Positions 1,756 through 52,143 of a stretch of 64,000 bases of DNA are shown piece by piece. Made by a program: the position numbers and the translations under genes. Numbering within the stretch: position 1 is the stretch's first letter; the number at the start of each line of letters is the position of its first letter. The notes under the pieces were generated by a model. It was not told the DNA's origin. It ran no database searches and was given only the letters and a program-made list of their open reading frames with translations. The stretch spans positions 396,980-460,979 of the forward strand of contig CAVRJJ010000005.1 in NCBI GenBank assembly GCA_963721685.1. Direction: 5' to 3'. The stretch is from an uncultured bacterium (lineage in GTDB: Bacteria > Patescibacteriota > Saccharimonadia > UBA4664 > SCTI01).

Positions 1756-2265
1756 ATGGAGAAAATTATGGACCATAATATATTATACCCGATGGTAAGA
1801 ACCACGCTTGATGAAATAGGAATTGAATACGAAGTCCTTGAATGTGACCCTAAACTTGCCGATACCACGGCGTTCTGCGAGCACTACGGTTTCGCTTTAG
1901 CGCAGGCTGCTAATACCATAGTGGTAGCGTCGAGAAAGATTGAGCCGACCAAGTATGCCGTTTGTGTGGCTCTCGCCACAACGCGGCTTGATGTTAATAA
2001 GAAAGTCTCTGAACTATTGGGCGTAAAGCGGCTGTCGTTTGCAGATAGCGAAACAACTCAGCGCCTGACCGGCATGATGATAGGAGGCGTTACCGCTATT
2101 GGCATTAAAGATTTGCCTATTTACGTGGACGCGGCAGTGATGGAGCAAAAGAAGGTAGTGATGGGCGGTGGCAATCGGTCGAGCAAAGTTTTGCTTGATC
2201 CGCGGGAGCTTTTGAAATTGAAAGAGCTAGAGGTGGTGGAAAGGCTAGCTAAGGCAAAAGAGTAA
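1756..2265 (+). CDS. ybaK: YbaK/ProX-type aminoacyl-tRNA deacylase
   Basis: 169 aa. The middle region (AVCVALATTRLDVNKK ... MIGGVTAIG ... VMGGG) matches YbaK/ProX trans-editing domain architecture as I recall it. Confidence 0.7.
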   Translation: MEKIMDHNILYPMVRTTLDEIGIEYEVLECDPKLADTTAFCEHYGFALAQAANTIVVASRKIEPTKYAVCVALATTRLDVNKKVSELLGVKRLSFADSETTQRLTGMMIGGVTAIGIKDLPIYVDAAVMEQKKVVMGGGNRSSKVLLDPRELLKLKELEVVERLAKAKE

Positions 2266-2284
2266 TACGAAGGTTTTAGTATGC

Positions 2285-2470
2285 ATGGGGTCGAGGTGCC
2301 CGGGGAGCCACTTGACCCCCCGGGTCCTCAAGCGCGCTAGGCGCTAGTTGCTGGAGCTGAGGATGCTCAGCTCCGCTTGGGGCTGGGTCGGACGCATTCG
2401 AACAGCGCGGTCCAACATCTCGCGGGCGCCCTGATCCTGATCCTTCTGGGTGGCGGAAGCCATGTGGCTC
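2285..2470. other. short high-GC patch (about 65% GC) in AT-rich intergenic DNA, carrying hairpins and a 39-codon minus-strand ORF (2344..2463)
   Basis: The hairpin CCCGGGG-N11-CCCCGGG lies at about 2300-2326, and AGCGCGCT is palindromic. The minus-strand ORF has RBS+ATG (reverse complement of catgtggctcctcct) and encodes MASATQKDQDQGAREMLDRAVRMRPTQPQAELSILSSSN. The GC contrast with the flanks is clear by eye. Confidence 0.2.
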
Positions 2471-2734
2471 CTCCTCGTTGTTTACTGCGCCAAAATTAGC
2501 ACAGAGTCTAAAAGGCTACCACTTTCGAGAGGGCTTATATGCTAGTAGAGCTCATGAAAATCCGATTTAATAACGTAAACGTTTTGTAATATGTATCTGG
2601 TAAGCATCAGTTGAGTATAGAGTATAAGGTTAAAATAAGCGCCAAGTAGCTACAGGCGACAGTAGAACCATATTTGCCGGTGCTTATTTATTGGAAATCC
2701 TGTAAACTGGCCTCTTAATACTAAGGAGAAGGCC

Positions 2735-3277
2735 GTGGCAAATCAATCAGCTCAGCTCAATAGCTTTGCCATCGATACAAGGGAAGACCTCGTAATTAAT
2801 GCCATCGAAATATTTGACACAATAAAACATTCGCTAGTGGTGCTGAATAAAGACTTAAACGTGGTAATGGCAAATGCCGCCTTTTACAAAACTTTCCAGG
2901 TTACCCGCGAAGAAACTGAGGGTAATCGTATTTACAATATTGGTAACGGCCAATGGAATATAGACAAATTAAAAATACTCCTTGAGAAAATTATTCCCCA
3001 AAATAAGGCTGTAGATGATTACGAGGTTAGCCATAATTTTAATACCATCGGCGAAAAGGTGATGCTCTTAAACGCGCGGGAAATAGTTCGCCAAGATAAC
3101 CGGCAAGAAGTGATATTGCTTGCGATCGAGGATATTACCTATAGCAAAATGTTAGAGCAACAGGCGAAAGACGCTGAGTCTCACATTAATACCATTCTTG
3201 AAAAGCTTGTTGGATCCGCCGTGCGGTACACTGGTGGAACTGCCCCGCAAACTTCTCCCAAGAAAAAGAAAGCATAG
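2735..3277 (+). CDS. PAS-domain protein (sensor fold only, no output domain)
   Basis: 180 aa with a GTG start and RBS aaggag at 2724-2729. The region VVLNKDLNVVMANAAFYKTFQVTREE ... NGQWNIDKL ... LLAIEDIT fits the PAS fold pattern, and the C-terminus is Lys-rich. Confidence 0.55.
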   Translation: MANQSAQLNSFAIDTREDLVINAIEIFDTIKHSLVVLNKDLNVVMANAAFYKTFQVTREETEGNRIYNIGNGQWNIDKLKILLEKIIPQNKAVDDYEVSHNFNTIGEKVMLLNAREIVRQDNRQEVILLAIEDITYSKMLEQQAKDAESHINTILEKLVGSAVRYTGGTAPQTSPKKKKA

Positions 3278-3462
3278 TTTTGCAAGCCTAAGCCCACTCA
3301 CTTGACTTATTAATGGATCTATGATATAAATAACAGATTCGGCGTGACAAAGTATGGTCATGCCGGTAGCACGGCGCAGCTAGGTTTTTAGTGCGTTTCA
3401 GTTTCGCAATCGTCCTAGTCAACCTCTTTCCTCGTGGAAAGAAACCAAGCAAGGGGGCTGGT

Positions 3463-3744
3463 ATGCAGTGCAGTGAGACGGGAAAGGCATTCGAGGACAC
3501 GAACGCCGTCTTCGCGGTTGTTGATTCCGCGGGGAGGACCATCGCGATGGTCTCCAAGGAGGTGGTGCTCGCAATCCCATCGGATAGGCGAGAATGGGAA
3601 GACAGATGTACTGAAGGAAGCTCGGGCGCGAACATCCATAGGACGGTCTATGACGCGGGGCACTTCCATGTCGATGACTTCGTCTTCTCGATTACTCGGC
3701 GCGTGCTCGAAAGGCATTTGCCGAATGTCGCCAGCATCTCCTGA
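3463..3744 (+). CDS. hypothetical protein encoded in a high-GC patch
   Basis: 93-aa ORF in a roughly 57% GC segment (3400-3850) flanked by 42-45% GC DNA. RBS aagggggctgg, and the hairpin+T-run terminator lies downstream at 3811-3846. The overlapping minus-strand and Arg-rich ORFs look like frame artefacts of the GC-rich DNA. Confidence 0.25.
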   Translation: MQCSETGKAFEDTNAVFAVVDSAGRTIAMVSKEVVLAIPSDRREWEDRCTEGSSGANIHRTVYDAGHFHVDDFVFSITRRVLERHLPNVASIS

Positions 3745-3810
3745 AGTGGCACACCACCAGGGCAGACTCGTATCTGGCGAGTACAAATGGCATTTTCCGC
3801 CATCTGCCCC

Positions 3811-3846
3811 AGCCCCATGAGGCGCAAAACCCTATGGGGCTTTTTG
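3811..3846 (+). terminator. rho-independent terminator (AGCCCCAT-loop-ATGGGGCT followed by TTTTT)
   Basis: An 8-bp perfect stem read directly (3811-3818 / 3834-3841), followed by a T5 run. Confidence 0.4.
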
Positions 3847-3891
3847 CTACCAATTTTTAACACGAGGAAGCTGGTCTGTTAAGCTTGCTAC

Positions 3892-4278
3892 ATGGATCTA
3901 ACTGAAATTATAGGCAAAGTTGCAGGCGTAGTTGCCGTGTTGGCGTTTGTCCCCTACATCTGGAGTGTACTTAAGGGCAGCACTCAACCAAGCCGCGCAA
4001 GTTGGTTAATATGGTCTGTCTTAGGTGTAAGTATTCTTGCCGACCTATTTGCTGGTATTCCTACCTTAATTAAAGCGTGGAAATTTCCGGATACCCAGAG
4101 TACTAATGTTTATCGCAACGGCGCATTGAGCGCGATAATCACTCTGCTTATTATTGATAACTGGACGTATGCTGCGTATGGATTTCCCGTATACATATTG
4201 GTTATTTGCGCACTACTTTATGTCTTCATCAAGTTCAGAGTCGGAATAAGGCTCAAGCCTGTAAAGACCGTGGCTTAA
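3892..4278 (+). CDS. small 3-4 TM membrane protein (possibly PQ-loop/SemiSWEET-like)
   Basis: 128 aa with hydrophobic helices. The PQ-loop resemblance is weak and unverified. Confidence 0.4.
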   Translation: MDLTEIIGKVAGVVAVLAFVPYIWSVLKGSTQPSRASWLIWSVLGVSILADLFAGIPTLIKAWKFPDTQSTNVYRNGALSAIITLLIIDNWTYAAYGFPVYILVICALLYVFIKFRVGIRLKPVKTVA

Positions 4279-4376
4279 AAATGATCATTATCTATTTCGA
4301 AGCTCATTTAGCGGCCGGGGGGGGGCTGTAACTGCCTCATGGAAATGGCAACCTGGGTGGATCTATAAATTGACAT

Positions 4377-4798: not shown

Positions 4799-4852
4799 GC
4801 ATCGATATTACCAGATAGGATTCCAAATCAGAACGATGGTTATGTTTTTTGT

Positions 4853-4952
4853 GGCTTCGCAAAGCCAATAATTGCATGGTGAACTACCGTGTATCGAATT
4901 GGAACCAAATCAAGAGAGAACTGGTCGCCTGGTATAAAGTTTTAGATGGAAG
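4853..4952 (-). repeat. degenerate tRNA-Glu-like element plus conserved 3' flank (copy A)
   Basis: It aligns along its full length with the intact tRNA-Glu at 10485..10559 and with copy B (about 85% identical to B over about 95 bp). It begins TGGTGA.., contains ATCGAAT, and ends ..TAGATGG. Confidence 0.55.
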
Positions 4953-4966
4953 TGAGCTTCAAGCAA

Positions 4967-6214
4967 TTACGAGAGGGTAGTGGAACCTCCTTTCTTTACA
5001 GCTAGGTACCTAAGCACTAGCAGGCCTAGCACCGCACTTATGGCAGAGGCGGCAAAGATACTTAGTTTGGAAATAGTTGCAAGCTGCTCTCCAGTAAAGG
5101 CAAGCTCTGTTACAAATATAGATACGGTAAAGCCTATTCCTGCCAGTAGTCCGGCTCCAAGTATGTGCATCCAGTTTGTGCTTGTTGGTAATGACGAAAA
5201 CCCTAACTTTATTATTAACCAGGATCCTAGTAATACGCCTATGGTCTTGCCAGCAACTAAGCCTAGAATAATGCCTCCAGTCAGCGGCAGGGCAGCGTCA
5301 TGCGGGAACGCATCAAATGATAGGGGGATGCCAGTATTGGCAAAGGCGAAGAGGGGGACGACTACAAGGGTGGAGGCTGGTATAGTAAATCGTTCTAAGC
5401 GTTCGGCTAAAGGCTCGCCACTTTTTCTTCTTTTTACCGGGGCAAGCAATCCAAGTAAGGCTCCAGCTATGCTAGGATGAATCCCCGAAGCCTGCAAGGT
5501 CAACCAAAGCAAGATTCCGGCAATAATAAAGACGGGCATGTTGAGTAACTTCATCTTGGCGAGCAATAATACCAAGCCCGAAAGTAGCGCTGCCGCTAAT
5601 AACATGGCGAAATTCGCATCTACTGAATAAAAAAGACCTATTACAATGACCGTTCCCACATCATCTACAATGGCCAGGGTTAAAAGAAAAAGTCGTAGGG
5701 AGGTTGGTATGCGATCACCCAGTAAGGCTAAGAAGCCTATCGCGATAGCAATGTCGGTGGCAGTTGGAATTGCCCATCCTCGGGCTGTCTCCAGTCCAGC
5801 ATTTATTGCGAGGAAGATTATCGCCGGAACAATCATGCCCCCAATGGCCGCGGCGATCGGTAGTAGTGCAGTACCACGATCACGTAACTTGCCCTTAACA
5901 AGCTCGCGCTTTAATTCCAGCCCAACTACCAGAAAGAAAATTGCCATGAGGCCTTCATTGATCCAATGACGCAGGTCTAGCGAAAGAACCCAATCCCCAA
6001 AACCGATAGGCAGGTTGGTGTGCCAAAGGGCATCATATACCGGCTTCATGCTGGTATTAGCGATCAAAAGTGCTAAGGCTGTTGTTGCCAGTATGAGCTT
6101 GCCGCTAATCGCTTCATCTTTAAGTAAGTATGAAGTAAGTTCGGATACTCGGGTTTTATGGAGTATTTTTACAATGTGTATGATTTTGTTTTTCAGGATA
6201 TATCCAGCCGCCAT
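4967..6214 (-). CDS. nhaA: Na+/H+ antiporter NhaA
   Basis: 415 aa with about 11-12 TM helices and the NhaA-characteristic segment GWAIPTATDIA plus ALAIVDD. Confidence 0.85.
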   Translation of the reverse strand: MAAGYILKNKIIHIVKILHKTRVSELTSYLLKDEAISGKLILATTALALLIANTSMKPVYDALWHTNLPIGFGDWVLSLDLRHWINEGLMAIFFLVVGLELKRELVKGKLRDRGTALLPIAAAIGGMIVPAIIFLAINAGLETARGWAIPTATDIAIAIGFLALLGDRIPTSLRLFLLTLAIVDDVGTVIVIGLFYSVDANFAMLLAAALLSGLVLLLAKMKLLNMPVFIIAGILLWLTLQASGIHPSIAGALLGLLAPVKRRKSGEPLAERLERFTIPASTLVVVPLFAFANTGIPLSFDAFPHDAALPLTGGIILGLVAGKTIGVLLGSWLIIKLGFSSLPTSTNWMHILGAGLLAGIGFTVSIFVTELAFTGEQLATISKLSIFAASAISAVLGLLVLRYLAVKKGGSTTLS

Positions 6215-7520: not shown

Positions 7521-7619
7521 ATGCCAATTTTACGAGAATTACTGTCATATAGCGAATGGCTCGAACCGCTAAGCAAGCCTGTATGTTGGATCCAAAACTT
7601 GCTATGTAATTAAGATAAT

Positions 7620-7716
7620 GGCTTCGCAAAGCCAATAAATGCTGGTGAACTATCAGATTTTGGATTGGCACCAAATCAAGAAGGAACTGATTGCCTGGTA
7701 TAAGGTTTTGGGGGAA
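7620..7716 (-). repeat. degenerate tRNA-Glu-like element plus 3' flank (copy B)
   Basis: The sequence ggcttcgcaaagccaataaatgctggtgaactatcag..ggattggcaccaaatcaagaaggaactgattgcctggtataaggtttt aligns with copy A and with the tRNA-Glu gene. Confidence 0.55.
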
Positions 7717-8044
7717 TACAGGTATTAGATATTACGAGCGTGTAGTGGAATCATTTGTTATAAAGTGAGCGATATGGCAACTCAATCTATTATAAAGTAC
7801 TAAAAAGCGGTACCGATCAATATCGGGCTAATTAACCCTCTTATTCGTTGGCTGCTTTGTATAAGGTTCTTATGCTTTCACAATTTGCTTAAAAGTGATA
7901 AAACTATAGCGGCCCGAGTGTTTGCGGAAATCAGCTCATGATCAAAGGAGTCGAAGTGACAGGAACTGCGACAACTGCTGAACCCCTTGTGCTGACGGCT
8001 GTCAGGTTCTGGTCGGCGCGACCTTATCGGGGTAAGATAAGGGT

Positions 8045-8730
8045 ATGCGTATATTAGTTGTTGAAGACGAGCATAAGATTGCCAGATGCGATAAAAAGGG
8101 GGCTGGAGCAAGAATCATTTGCTGTCGATGTAGCCTACACCAGTGACGAGGGGGTGTCGATGGCTGACAACTGAAGATCTATGATGCAGTCGTTCGTAGA
8201 TCGTATGTTGCCAGGATTACTTGACGGCGTAGATATTGTTAAAGAAATGCGGCGCGAGCAGATTCATACTCCTGTACTCTTGTTGACTGCAAAAGATGGT
8301 ATAAGAAGATCGGGTAATCGGCCTGAATGCTGGCGCAGATGATTACCTGGTTAAGCCATTTGCATTTGCAGAACTTCTTGCGAGAGTTCGAGCATTACTT
8401 CGTCGCCCTCACGATTCTTTAGGAACTGTTTTGAAAATCGATGATCTTACGCTCGACACTAACAGTTTTGAGGTACAGCGAGCTGGGAATAAGATCGACT
8501 TAACAAGTAAAGAATTCGCTCTTTTAGAGTATTTGATGCGAAATCAAAATCAGACACTAACAAAGAGCAACATAATGAATCATGTTTGGGATTATGATGC
8601 AGATATCCTTCCAAATACAGTAGAGGTTTACATAGGGTATCTTCGCAATAAGATCGATAAGCCTTTTACGAGCCCATCGTTGATTCAGACTTCCAGAGGT
8701 TTTGGATATAAAATGGCAGTTGCTAAATAA
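8045..8730 (+). pseudogene. OmpR/PhoB-family response regulator disrupted by several frameshifts
   Basis: It begins MRILVVEDEHKIA (receiver). The receiver motifs (..AVDVAYTSDEG.., ..HTPVLLLTAKDG.., ..GADDYLVKPFAFAELLARV..) can be read only by switching frame at least 3 times, once at an a5g5 homopolymer. The intact C-terminal winged-helix is track ORF 8431..8730. Confidence 0.6.
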
Positions 8731-9738
8731 TGTTCAAAAGTTCAGTAATAAAGCTCTCGGCTGCATATTTAGCTATATTGATGCTAATCTGTATTTTTTT
8801 CAGCATTATGGTTTACAGGGTGTCAACTGATTCGCTCGAGGAAAGTTTTCAGCGCCGAACACGGGCGCCTACAGCCTAGGTTCGGGCCTTTGCCTAGGGA
8901 GGAGTTTGAGCAGCTTCGAAATGAGCAGCTAGCCGAGGGGAGGTCGCGTATCATTATGAATCTGTTCGGTACTAATGTACTCATTTTAGTACTAGGGGGA
9001 CGCAGGTAGTTATTTATTGGCACAGCGAACCTTGCGTCCTATAGAGGAAGCGCTCGATGCTCAGAGTCGGTTTACGGCTGATGCCTCCCATGAATTGCGT
9101 ACTCCTCTCACTGCTATGCGAACTGAGATAGAGGTCAGCCTTACAGAGACAAGAAATTAAAAGTTGGGGAGGCGAGGGAATTACTTGATTCCAACTTAGA
9201 AGAAATCGACAAACTCCGAGAGCTTGCGAGTGGGCTATTAACATTATCCAGGCAGCAAAATGGGGATGCAATACCCTTTAGTGAACTACAGCTTAATACG
9301 ATTGCCAGAGAAGCACAGGAGCGACTATCTGGTGTTATAGCTAAGACGAATACAGTCATTAAGACCGAATCTGACGTGGAATATCCAGTCACAGGCGACC
9401 GTGAAAGCTTAATTAGGTTATTCGTGATACTTCTGGACAATGCAATTAAATACAGTAAAGAGACTCCTAATATCCTTATCTCCATCAAGCAGGATTCCCG
9501 AAAAGCAGTGGTCCAAATAAAGGATGAGGGCATAGGCATTAAAGCTTCTGATCTACCGCATATATTTAACAGGTTTTATCGTGCAGACACCTCTCGATCA
9601 AAGTCCACTGAAGGATACGGGTTGGGGCTTTCTATCGCTAAACAAATCGTAGATAGACATAAAGGCTCAATTAATGTTTCAAGTACTCCAGGGGAGGGTT
9701 CGTTAATTACTGTTAGTCTGCCTATAAAACCAGCTTAG
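8730..9738 (+). pseudogene. sensor histidine kinase (HisKA + HATPase_c) with frameshifts and stops
   Basis: The ATG overlaps the stop of the response regulator (TAATG). There is an N-terminal TM and an H-box (ASHELRTPLTAMRTEIEV) in one frame. An intact HATPase_c domain is track ORF 9376..9738 (N/G1/G2 boxes: LLDNAIKYS, DEGIGI, GYGLGLSI). The middle is broken by frame changes and a TAA. Confidence 0.55.
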
Positions 9739-43420: not shown

Positions 43421-43576
43421 ATGCTAAACGCTAGCTCCGCCAATTCGCGCAGCACTATCATATTTGAATTAATTGTAGGGGTTACCGTAATAGCCGCTGT
43501 CGGTTTAGGTGTCTATCAGCTTCAGCACCCGGAGCTCACTCAGCAGCAGCAGATCCAAGCGGCGTTTGAGCATTAA
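43421..43576 (+). CDS. small (51 aa) single-TM protein
   Basis: ATG preceded by aaaggga, encoding MLNASSANSRSTIIFELIVGVTVIAAVGLGVYQL... It is below the track cutoff. Confidence 0.3.
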   Translation: MLNASSANSRSTIIFELIVGVTVIAAVGLGVYQLQHPELTQQQQIQAAFEH

Positions 43577-43590
43577 AATTACTTAAGAAC

Positions 43591-43638
43591 AAAAAGAGAA
43601 CCCGCATCGAAGTGAAGCGGGTTCTCTTCGATGCGGGT
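43591..43638 (-). terminator. rho-independent terminator for the minus-strand high-GC gene (AGAGAACCCG-loop-CGGGTTCTCT followed by T5 on the minus strand), with an alternative nested 12-bp stem
   Basis: A 10-bp stem lies at 43596-43605/43618-43627 and AAAAA at 43591-95 (U-run on the minus transcript). The alternative stem is CCCGCATCGAAG/CTTCGATGCGGG. Confidence 0.45.
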
Positions 43639-43706
43639 TGAGGGCTGAGCGCCGAAGGCTTGTATGGGCCTTCGGGCAGGGCTGGCGGGGATCGCCGCGG
43701 GTCGGG

Positions 43707-44105
43707 CTAGCTGAGCACCTCATCGATCGGCACGGACTTGCCGGCCGCGTCGCGGAGCGGCCCGAGAATCCGGATCGAATCAACCCCGAGGGCGATCCTG
43801 ATGAGATCGGAAATCGCCAGAACCAGCTCGCGGCCGATCATCTCCTCCGGGACGTCGACCTTCAGGTTGCAAAGCTGGTCCGCCCGGTGGAAGTAGTCGG
43901 CTCGTGTGATGCCAGCCAGAACGCCCGCCTGCTCTTCGCGAACGAGACGAGCGATACCGGTGCCGACCTCGAGTCCCATCGGTGGGAAGGTGAAACGAAG
44001 TGTCTTGGAAACGATCGTCGCCCCTTCACTGGTAGCGATGAGGATGGTGGGGGTATCGGCGTGACGTTCGGTCGTGCCTGTTGCTGCATGTGCATCCGTG
44101 GTCAT
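43707..44105 (-). CDS. hypothetical protein in a high-GC (about 62%) patch, probably horizontally acquired
   Basis: 132 aa with RBS aggaggga, sharply higher GC than its neighbours, and actinobacterial-like codon usage. Its segment ILIATSEGATIVSKTLRFTFPP resembles FAVVDSAGRTIAMVSKEVVLAIPS in the 3463 ORF. Confidence 0.5.
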   Translation of the reverse strand: MTTDAHAATGTTERHADTPTILIATSEGATIVSKTLRFTFPPMGLEVGTGIARLVREEQAGVLAGITRADYFHRADQLCNLKVDVPEEMIGRELVLAISDLIRIALGVDSIRILGPLRDAAGKSVPIDEVLS

Positions 44106-44251
44106 GGGTTCCCTCCTGGGTGGGTTGCGGATTCAGCGTTGATATATTCTAACATATAATTGCTTTTAGGTCAATGTGCAATCTCTACAACCTGCTTATG
44201 GTAAAAAAGGCATAGACACGGTACAATAACCCTGTAGGATTATATTTTTAC

Positions 44252-45515
44252 ATGGCATTGAAGCTCGTCGATAAAATTCGGAAAAAAGGTGACAGCGAAC
44301 AGTATATTGTGGCGCTGGATATTGGTACCGAATTTGTTAAAGCCCTGATTGGCAGGGTGAAAGGCGATAAGATTGAAATTATTGGAGTTGGCCGGCAACA
44401 TCAGCGCTTAACCGATATGGCATCGGGAGCGGTAACCGATATTGCCGGGGTGGTAGATAACTGTGATGCGGCCCTAAAGCAGGCTGAAGAAATGGCTGGG
44501 GTCGTTGCCAAAGATGTTGTTCTGGGGATTGCCGGAGAGCTGGTAAAAGGGACCTCAACCACCATTAAATATAAGCGCACTGACGCCCAAAGCCGCATTG
44601 AAATGAGCGAACTGCGTAAAATTTTAGACCGGGTTCAAGAGCGGGCATTTGAGCGTGCCCGGGAAACTCTTGCCTGGGAAACTGGCCAACAGGAAATTGA
44701 TGTAAAAATGGTGAACACGGCAATTGTGGATGTCCAAATTGACGGTTACCGGGTTACCAATCCCATTGGCTTCCAGGGGCGGGACGTATCGATTCAGCTT
44801 TTTAACGCGTTCGCCCCAATGGTGCACATCGGGGCCTTGCAGCAAGTAGGCAATAATTTAGACTTAAATATTATCAATATCGCCGCCGAACCATTCGCGG
44901 TGGCCAAAAGTGTTGGCGGGCGAGGATTCCAGCGACTTTAGCGCCATTTTTATTGATATTGGCGGCGGTACAACCGATATTGCGGTGGTTGATAACGGCG
45001 GCGTTGAAGGTACTAAGATGTTTGGAATTGGCGGTCGCTCGTTTACCAAGCGTATTGCCCAAATGATGGACATTAGCTTTGAAAAGGCGGAAGAGTTAAA
45101 GCTGGAATATTCAGCCGGAACGCTGGCTCATGTAGCCGATAAGCAGGCTGTAGCGGAGGCGGTTAAGGCCGATATTAACGTTTGGCTTTCGGGTGTTGAG
45201 CTAAGCTTGGCGGAGTTCACGAAGCTTGATCATCTGCCAGCCAAAATCCTCTTATGCGGCGGAGGTACCGGCCTTCCGGAAATTATGAAAGCTCTTAAGG
45301 GTGACTGGTATAAAGAACTTCCTTTTGCGCGCAAGCCGATAATCAGCCACATTCAACCTTCTATGGTTTCCCGGGTAATAGACACAACCGGGCAGCTTAC
45401 CAGTTACGCCGATATTACTCCGATGGGGCTGGCAAACCTTGGCCTTGATGTTATAAACACCGGCAGTATCAGTGAAAGTGTGCTGCAAAAACTAAGTAAG
45501 AGCTTGCAGAACTAA
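44252..45515 (+). CDS. ftsA: cell division protein FtsA, interrupted by a 1-nt frameshift in an A4 run (44906-44909)
   Basis: Two adjacent track ORFs (44252..44941, 44910..45515) together give a full actin-like FtsA (ALDIGTEF ... IAAEPFAVAK|VLAGEDSSDFSAIFIDIGGGTTDIAV ... LLCGGGTGLPEI). Only the join at aaaagtgttggcg is out of frame. Confidence 0.7.
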
Positions 45516-51960: not shown

Positions 51961-52143
51961 ATGGATCCAGATACTGCGGACAGGTTAGCGGCAGGGATGC
52001 CGGTTCCTGCACAACAGCTGCAGGATGATGCCGCGAAGAGGGCTACAGATGCCCGCGTGGCTCAACAGCAGCAGCAAAAAGCGGAGGCGGAAGCGGCGGC
52101 CCGGGCTGCTGATGCGGCCAACGCGCAACGTTACGGCAGCTGA
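51961..52143 (+). CDS. small Ala/Gln-rich hypothetical protein (60 aa)
   Basis: RBS aagaggaac. Low-complexity sequence. Confidence 0.3.
   Translation: MDPDTADRLAAGMPVPAQQLQDDAAKRATDARVAQQQQQKAEAEAAARAADAANAQRYGS

Follow-up and report, generated by a model that had tools for sequence, protein, structure and literature searches.

GC-rich patches and their small genes

The DNA considered here is a 64,000-bp stretch from an uncultured bacterium (contig CAVRJJ010000005.1 of assembly GCA_963721685.1, positions 396,980 to 460,979), referred to below as the window. Three short patches of raised guanine-plus-cytosine (GC) content lie between its genes, at 2285-2476 (patch 1), 3400-3850 (patch 2) and 43.6-44.1 kb (patch 3), and each contains one small open reading frame (ORF), of 39, 93 and 132 amino acids (aa), respectively. 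The codon composition of the three ORFs is foreign to the host. Judging from its genes, the source organism is an environmental Saccharibacterium (TM7), because its AlaRS is 57-68% identical to the AlaRS of Saccharibacteria metagenome-assembled genomes (MAGs) and the order MnmA-AlaRS-FtsA is conserved; including a gene for a 555-aa protein after FtsA, this order is common to the window and the MAGs. Proteins identical to those of the window are recorded from an NCBI/ENA contig of 466,349 bp. A preliminary description of the window had made the same guess about the organism.

In a GC profile of the whole window the mean is 50.5%. Low GC is confined to a local region of about 1.5-9 kb, where the genes at 1.7-7 kb have 41-47% GC; the remaining window has 48-56%. 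The background of 42-45% GC given in the preliminary description therefore applies to this local region but not to the window.

Patch 1 is a minus-strand block of 66.7% GC (measured over 2285-2470) directly downstream of a tRNA-editing (YbaK-like) gene, and it forms the second-highest 186-nt GC peak in the window. Its hydrophilic 39-aa ORF (MASATQKDQDQGAREMLDRAVRMRPTQPQAELSILSSSN) occupies 2344-2463 on the minus strand and is preceded by a Shine-Dalgarno (SD) site, GAGGAGG at 2470-2476, 6 nt upstream of the ATG. GC-rich hairpins of the same strand (2353-2374, 2299-2324 and 2287-2319, together spanning 2287-2374) lie at and beyond the 3′ end of the ORF and have no U-run; a perfect 9-bp hairpin falls within the 3′ end of the ORF itself. 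The RNA fold of the patch has z = -2.96 on the minus strand and z = -1.10 on the plus strand.

Patch 2 has 56.1% GC. Its ORF, on the plus strand at 3463-3744, encodes a predicted acidic cytoplasmic protein of 93 aa and has an SD site, AAGGGGG at 3451-3457, 5 nt upstream. The ORF is followed on the same strand by a structured 3′ element (3760-3853, fold z = -3.84), in which an outer stem GGGCAGA/TCTGCCC encloses two hairpins, and then comes a terminator hairpin (3811-3841) with TTTTT, the hairpin and its T-run covering 3811-3846. A 9-nt direct repeat, ATGGATCTA, flanks the patch at 3313-3321 and 3892-3900. Its second copy holds the start codon of the downstream membrane-protein gene, and about 0.7 such repeats are expected in this region by chance.

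Patch 3, with 63.7% GC, is the top 450-nt GC peak of the window. It encodes on the minus strand (43707-44105) a predicted acidic cytoplasmic protein of 132 aa, with the SD site GGAGGG at 44111-44116, 5 nt upstream. A promoter-like site, TTGACC-17-TAGAAT with a TG (44146-44174, minus strand, a consensus match only), lies upstream of the gene in the AT-rich flank. Downstream, the minus-strand segment 43594-43675 holds a hairpin at 43652-43675 and an intrinsic terminator at 43599-43639 with a 14-bp stem and CUCUUUUUG; the fold of this downstream region has z = -5.76. The promoter region of the gene (44147-44163) also has a 17-nt exact inverted match to the start of a glyoxalase gene at 906-922, where about 0.007 such matches are expected by chance.

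Judged by consensus and fold evidence only, all three patches thus have an SD site, patches 2 and 3 have terminators, patch 3 has a promoter-like site, and patch 1 has hairpins lacking a U-run. These features agree well with the preliminary description, which had reported the high GC of the patches, the hairpins and 39-codon ORF of patch 1 with its own ribosome-binding site (RBS), the 93-aa ORF with RBS and terminator, and the 132-aa protein of the third patch. It had also seen a similar segment in the two larger proteins. The 93- and 132-aa proteins do not align with each other in BLASTP even at E<=100, and the shared motif is not real.

The foreign character of the ORFs is most evident at the third codon position. 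In 47 large ORFs of the window the GC content of third positions (GC3) has a mean of 0.534 +/- 0.049 and a maximum of 0.645. The values for first, second and third positions (GC1/2/3) are 0.63/0.48/0.80 in the 39-aa ORF, 0.54/0.46/0.713 in the 93-aa ORF and 0.66/0.47/0.737 in the 132-aa ORF. In all three called frames the pattern is GC3 > GC1 > GC2, as expected for coding DNA. Outlier status was expressed by bootstrap as the share of all in-frame host windows, matched in length, that reach the GC3 of each ORF: 0.045% of host 40-codon windows for the 39-aa ORF, 0.34% for the 93-aa ORF, and 0 of 11,173 for the 132-aa ORF, whose total GC is likewise reached by none. A 60-aa Ala/Gln-rich ORF at 51961-52143, which has an SD site and a terminator and lies between two tRNA-Ala genes, serves as a control. 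It has 63% GC through alanine codons only; its GC3 is ordinary and the ORF is not foreign-looking.

Variable junctions

The patches are not assembly chimeras, because the same ORFs are found in the same context in a second assembly, the Logan assembly of ERR12037361. There the 132-aa gene, with one residue different, lies beside the same 51-aa ORF, AlaRS and MnmA, and the 39-aa ORF lies between the same tRNA-editing (tRNA_edit) and PAS genes. The 93-aa gene starts at the same distance from the PAS gene, and the contig ends inside patch 2.

Sequence comparison shows the junctions of patches 1 and 3 to be variable between relatives. The spacer between AlaRS and FtsA, which holds patch 3, measures 995 bp in the window. 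In 12 Saccharibacteria relatives it is 35-215 bp long, and in 10 others it is 0.5-3.2 kb long and contains ORFs that show no relation to the 132-aa protein. The spacers of the relatives gave no match to an Rfam family. Because the spacer is short in the 12 and holds unrelated inserts in the 10, patch 3 is, on this comparative evidence, an insertion at a recurrent hotspot. The same spacer holds a 51-aa single-pass membrane mini-protein (43421-43576) of host-like GC, which is present in the second assembly and unmatched in relatives.

For patch 1 the closest available relative is contig L081, whose tRNA_edit protein is 82% identical to that of the window. The two DNAs align from about 70 nt upstream of the tRNA_edit gene to 'CATGGGG' (2284-2290), about 25 nt past its stop codon, and diverge completely beyond this point. 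At the site of patch 1, L081 carries a different GC-rich gene on the minus strand that appears to be a lipoprotein gene with a frameshift; other GC-rich genes without a Pfam match surround it. The preliminary description had regarded the patches as foreign-looking DNA with coding potential, and this view is now backed by both the codon statistics and the variable insertion sites.

Relatives of the protein encoded by the tRNA_edit gene of the window (1756-2265) with 65-73% identity occur on metagenome contigs of 63-74% GC and also on contigs of 43-54% GC, and none of 80 related metagenome loci shares a neighbour of this gene with the window. The tRNA_edit gene may itself move between lineages.

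Other genes of the window show frameshifts. A 1-nt frameshift at ...AEPFAVAKSV|LAGEDSSDF... (44900-44941) divides ftsA, a single ORF in relatives, into two ORFs (44252-44941 and 44910-45515); either long-read assembly introduced an indel error here or the gene is a pseudogene. A response-regulator/histidine-kinase pair at 8046-9738 is broken into at least five ORFs by frameshifts of the same type.

An orphan-gene array in a co-occurring strain

Contig L161 (ENA ERZ25039476), 4.4 kb long, comes from a co-occurring strain. It carries five GC-rich genes with GC3 of 0.68-0.79, none above the Pfam threshold, with AT-rich spacers between them. The last 345 bp of L161 (4366-4023) are 98% identical to window positions 7680-8024, and the similarity ends abruptly inside a GC-rich gene. 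The window retains a plus-strand stub of this orphan gene at 7941-8024, which consists of the RBS and the first 23 codons (GTG at 7956) of a 164-aa gene of L161 and has a 1-nt deletion. Past 8024, L161 enters an array of GC-rich orphan ORFs of at least 4 kb, and the window enters the response-regulator gene. As read from this alignment, the breakpoint at 8024 marks a strain-level deletion or insertion of an orphan-gene array of at least 4 kb. Because L161 holds the array where the window retains the stub only, the comparison of the two sequences amounts to direct evidence of gene gain and loss between co-occurring strains.

An AT-rich repeat of about 135 nt, with the hairpin GGCTTCGCAAAGCC and a mini-ORF (M/L)VNYRVSNWNQIKRELVAWYKVL..., accompanies these genes. 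The window has two plus-strand copies, one at 4852-4985 and another at 7619-7750, just upstream of the stub. In L161, copies at 789-901, 1650-1762, 2441-2553 and 4292-4366 separate the GC-rich orphan genes. The mini-ORF has 32-34 aa. Its variable columns fall 5/5/12 on codon positions 1/2/3, and the ratio of synonymous to nonsynonymous changes is 39:45 in its frame; the other two frames give 12:67 and 8:71. The repeat therefore appears, from this pattern of substitution, to encode a peptide. It has no Pfam match and was not found in the other 160 loci or in IMG/VR.

The 3′ element of patch 2 has homologues in L161 (1944-1845, minus strand) and L081 (2824-2922, plus strand), and in each contig it follows an unrelated GC-rich ORF. 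The L161 and L081 copies are 94% identical to each other, and either is about 70% identical to the window copy. A covariance model of the element found one copy in the 64-kb window and recovered only the three copies used to build it. No match to Rfam 15 was obtained at E<=1 on 2200-3900, so the element is without an Rfam family; over the whole window, Rfam at its gathering score gives three tRNAs and nothing else. The element may be a small RNA, or else a module of the 3′ untranslated region (UTR) that these genes share.

Orphan genes of this kind are not limited to one contig. ORFs that are GC3 outliers and lack a Pfam match, with GC3 0.15-0.3 above the core genes of their own loci, occur in L083 (2736-5649), L088 (114-2933) and L005 (5677-10203). 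Among them is a lipoprotein common to L083 and L088 with 41% identity. One of the L081 GC-rich genes has a single homologue on L161 (P0009, 46% identity), which is also present in ERR12037361. There is thus a pool of alike but mutually unrelated GC-rich orphan genes in L161 and in related species (L081, L083/L088).

Searches for relatives and mobility signatures

Pfam, NCBIfam, PHROGs and PADLOC contain no match to the three patch ORFs. In a sequence search of the PDB the 93- and 132-aa proteins gave only noise (E>=0.4), and among 5.8 billion protein clusters they matched only themselves. When 1.84 billion representatives were searched exhaustively by HMMER, the 132-aa protein retrieved only itself and P0007, with no credible relative. 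P0007 was rejected as spurious, because this tandem-repeat protein of 1035 aa owes its score to seven weak repeat matches added together. None of the patch ORFs is similar to the orphan ORFs of L161, L081, L083, L088 and L005 or to the spacer ORFs of relatives, and there is no DNA similarity among the three patches or from them to the rest of the window. Searches of 50,697 phages, 72,556 plasmids and IMG/VR gave no match for the patches, for L161 or for L161 proteins.

Direct repeats of 8-9 nt occur near the patches at chance-level frequency, with no convincing target-site duplication among them, and terminal inverted repeats are absent. No integrase was seen in 10 kb around patches 1 and 2, and the region of 1-10.5 kb has no long unassigned ORF.

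Origin of the patches

We hold, with moderate confidence, that each patch is an independent, moron-like, single-gene accessory unit of the flexible genome, acquired horizontally from a GC-richer gene pool. The units have a common layout: an SD site, a small GC3-rich ORF and a GC-rich hairpin or terminator, located at an intergenic junction that, for patches 1 and 3, differs between relatives. The genes may have come from other, GC-richer Saccharibacteria or from an unsampled mobile element. Such Saccharibacteria or their mobile elements are plausible donors, because GC3 ranges from 0.25 up to 0.68 across the genomes sampled. Uptake would probably occur by natural transformation dependent on ComEC, a form of competence documented in Saccharibacteria (PMC10633639), and illegitimate or short-homology recombination could then place the DNA between genes. 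Gain, replacement and truncation between strains would be rapid; the stub at 7941-8024 is an example of such truncation, and the 39-aa ORF of patch 1 is possibly another. Each unit is probably transcribed alone, and its predicted product is small, acidic and cytoplasmic; the 93- and 132-aa proteins fit this description and have no transmembrane segments. A role of these proteins in conflict or in host interaction is a guess by analogy with phage morons and with other orphan genes that vary between strains.

Several observations weigh against this interpretation. A donor or homologue was found for none of the three genes, so composition and context are the only grounds for a horizontal origin. 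The flanks of the patches contain neither a transposase nor an integrase, and no target-site duplication or terminal repeat. The comparison of GC and GC3 with the host, which the preliminary description had proposed, finds all three ORFs outlying in GC3, but the total GC of patch 2 is ordinary (equalled by 9% of host windows) and its GC3 alone stands out. Patch 2 also has no synteny support as an insertion, since the 80 tRNA_edit loci share no other gene with the window. The assembly frameshifts in ftsA and the two-component genes could affect ORF lengths. ERR12037361 may be the MAG's own sample, in which case it is a second assembly and not a second population. For the 132-aa protein, AlphaFold2 run on the single sequence gave an unreliable model (predicted local distance difference test score, pLDDT, of 47), which is uninformative on function.

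The preliminary description had suggested transfer from host to symbiont, in which an episymbiont would have taken up pieces of DNA from its high-GC actinobacterial host and integrated them as the patches. This now seems improbable. It is true that cultivated Saccharibacteria grow on Actinobacteria and are naturally competent (PMC10633639), that GC is raised at all three codon positions, and that the relatives of the neighbouring tRNA_edit protein on contigs of 63-74% GC are of unknown taxonomy. Yet the 93- and 132-aa proteins have no homologue in any lineage, neither among the 5.8 billion clusters nor, for the 132-aa protein, in the HMMER search, and the proposal is left unsupported. Plasmid and phage collections are expected to contain many actinobacterial records, and those searched gave neither a DNA nor a protein match. 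Random host fragments would be pieces of genes, not complete units with SD site, ORF and terminator. The 3′ element of patch 2 is common to contigs of the same lineage, and GC3 of 0.71-0.80 is below that of typical Actinobacteria of 65-72% GC. An origin within the lineage, as native and fast-evolving genes, has somewhat more in its favour, though we still regard it as rather unlikely. The accessory orphans of the clade would then use codons richer in GC3 than the core genes do, and would arise and decay in place. GC3-outlier genes without Pfam matches do recur in L083, L088, L005, L081 and L161. Relatives of such genes were found solely within the lineage (in L161, L081 and L083/L088), an outcome which the preliminary description had itself set against its proposal. 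The promoter regions and the 3′ element also look native. But new or fast-evolving native genes should carry the mutational bias of the host and be host-like or AT-richer in composition. GC1 and GC2 are raised in two of the ORFs (39 and 132 aa; the 93-aa ORF is the exception), the edges of the patches are sharp, and close relatives hold different genes at the same junction. Least credible of all are chimeric joins with reads of a co-occurring high-GC organism. Indel-type frameshifts in the MAG and the Logan contig that ends inside patch 2 would fit such an artefact. The same junctions and ORFs are present in a separate assembly, however, the patches form complete transcription units within AT-rich flanks of a kind seen elsewhere in the genome, and it is implausible that chimeras of 200-550 bp would have kept both junctions intact.

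A distinct explanation concerns patch 1 only and is a possibility to be taken seriously, although we do not prefer it. The 39-aa ORF may not be a working gene. The block could instead serve, between convergent units, as a structured RNA or a GC-rich bidirectional terminator, or it could be a truncated remnant, the 5′ stub left by the deletion of a larger cassette gene. The minus-strand RNA folds better than shuffled sequences, and the perfect hairpin lies inside the 3′ end of the ORF. A proven stub of like kind exists at 7941-8024, a longer gene (probably that of the frameshifted lipoprotein) occupies the site in L081, and an ORF of 39 aa is too short for any homology test. On the other hand, the SD site of the ORF is strong and ideally spaced, the called frame has a GC3 of 0.80, and both assemblies yield the same gene call. 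The patch has no Rfam match, and with no U-run after its hairpins it is not a canonical terminator. More doubtful is a broader idea, that some Saccharibacteria possess an undescribed cassette system of which the patches are scattered members. GC-rich orphan genes would then be gained, arrayed and deleted at junctions marked by the ~135-nt repeat, with its conserved 32-34-aa peptide (M)VNYRVSNWNQIKRELVAWYKVL..., and by the conserved structured 3′ RNA element. If true, it would mean an integron-like or hypervariable host-interaction locus without a recognisable integrase.

Our preferred interpretation of the patches as acquired single-gene units has some wider implications. Because Saccharibacteria depend on host bacteria and their genomes are tiny, any gene that varies between strains is a candidate for a part in host interaction or defence. 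The GC-rich orphan genes described here are subject to turnover among strains that occur together. Should the architecture of L161, with its repeat and array, prove general, it could indicate a new mode of accessory-gene shuffling in these bacteria. A caution also follows, in that high GC by itself is no proof of an actinobacterial host origin. The points of extra interest, which we rate as moderate, are the bias toward GC, the demonstrated strain turnover and the unexplained repeat and array architecture of L161.

Comparison with known systems

Gene transfer between Saccharibacteria and their actinobacterial hosts has been proposed in the literature, and as a rule these proposals are based on homologues that can be identified in the donor lineage. 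The present case resembles them in the phylum, in the competence of the recipient (PMC10633639) and in the presence of inserts that are GC-richer than the genome. It differs in that the 93- and 132-aa genes have no donor-lineage homologues.

Integron cassettes and clusters of attC sites lacking integrases (CALIN) offer another parallel. They too consist of small, mostly orphan ORFs of odd composition, to which the L161 array with its separating repeat is similar. The imperfect-palindrome element after the patch 2 ORF, whose homologues follow unrelated ORFs, is a further likeness. The 3′ element, however, is single-copy in 64 kb, and patches 1 and 3 carry unrelated hairpins, so that there is no attC-type site for each ORF. 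Integron cassettes are co-oriented and promoterless; here orientations are mixed, in L161 as in the window, a promoter-like site precedes the patch 3 gene, and the L161 repeat is seemingly peptide-coding, unlike an attC hairpin.

Phage morons are extra single-gene transcription units described in lambdoid prophages. The likeness lies in a lone small gene equipped with a promoter or SD site and a terminator of its own, located between conserved neighbours, deviant in composition and patchy in presence; patch 3 fits all of these points. Unlike morons, the patches lie in the core chromosome (AlaRS-FtsA and tRNA_edit-PAS) beside housekeeping genes and not in a prophage. There are no phage genes near them and no PHROG, IMG/VR or phage match.

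Horizontally acquired orphan islets are well known as a class. The patch genes share with genomic islets and acquired orphan genes the atypical codon usage, the strain-variable presence, the absence of detectable homologues and the small size. Acquired orphan genes are usually AT-richer than their host. The patch genes are GC-richer than theirs, and the same trend is seen in several Saccharibacteria loci. The flexible genome of Saccharibacteria thus includes self-contained orphan genes that are GC-richer than the core, the reverse of the usual AT-rich island.

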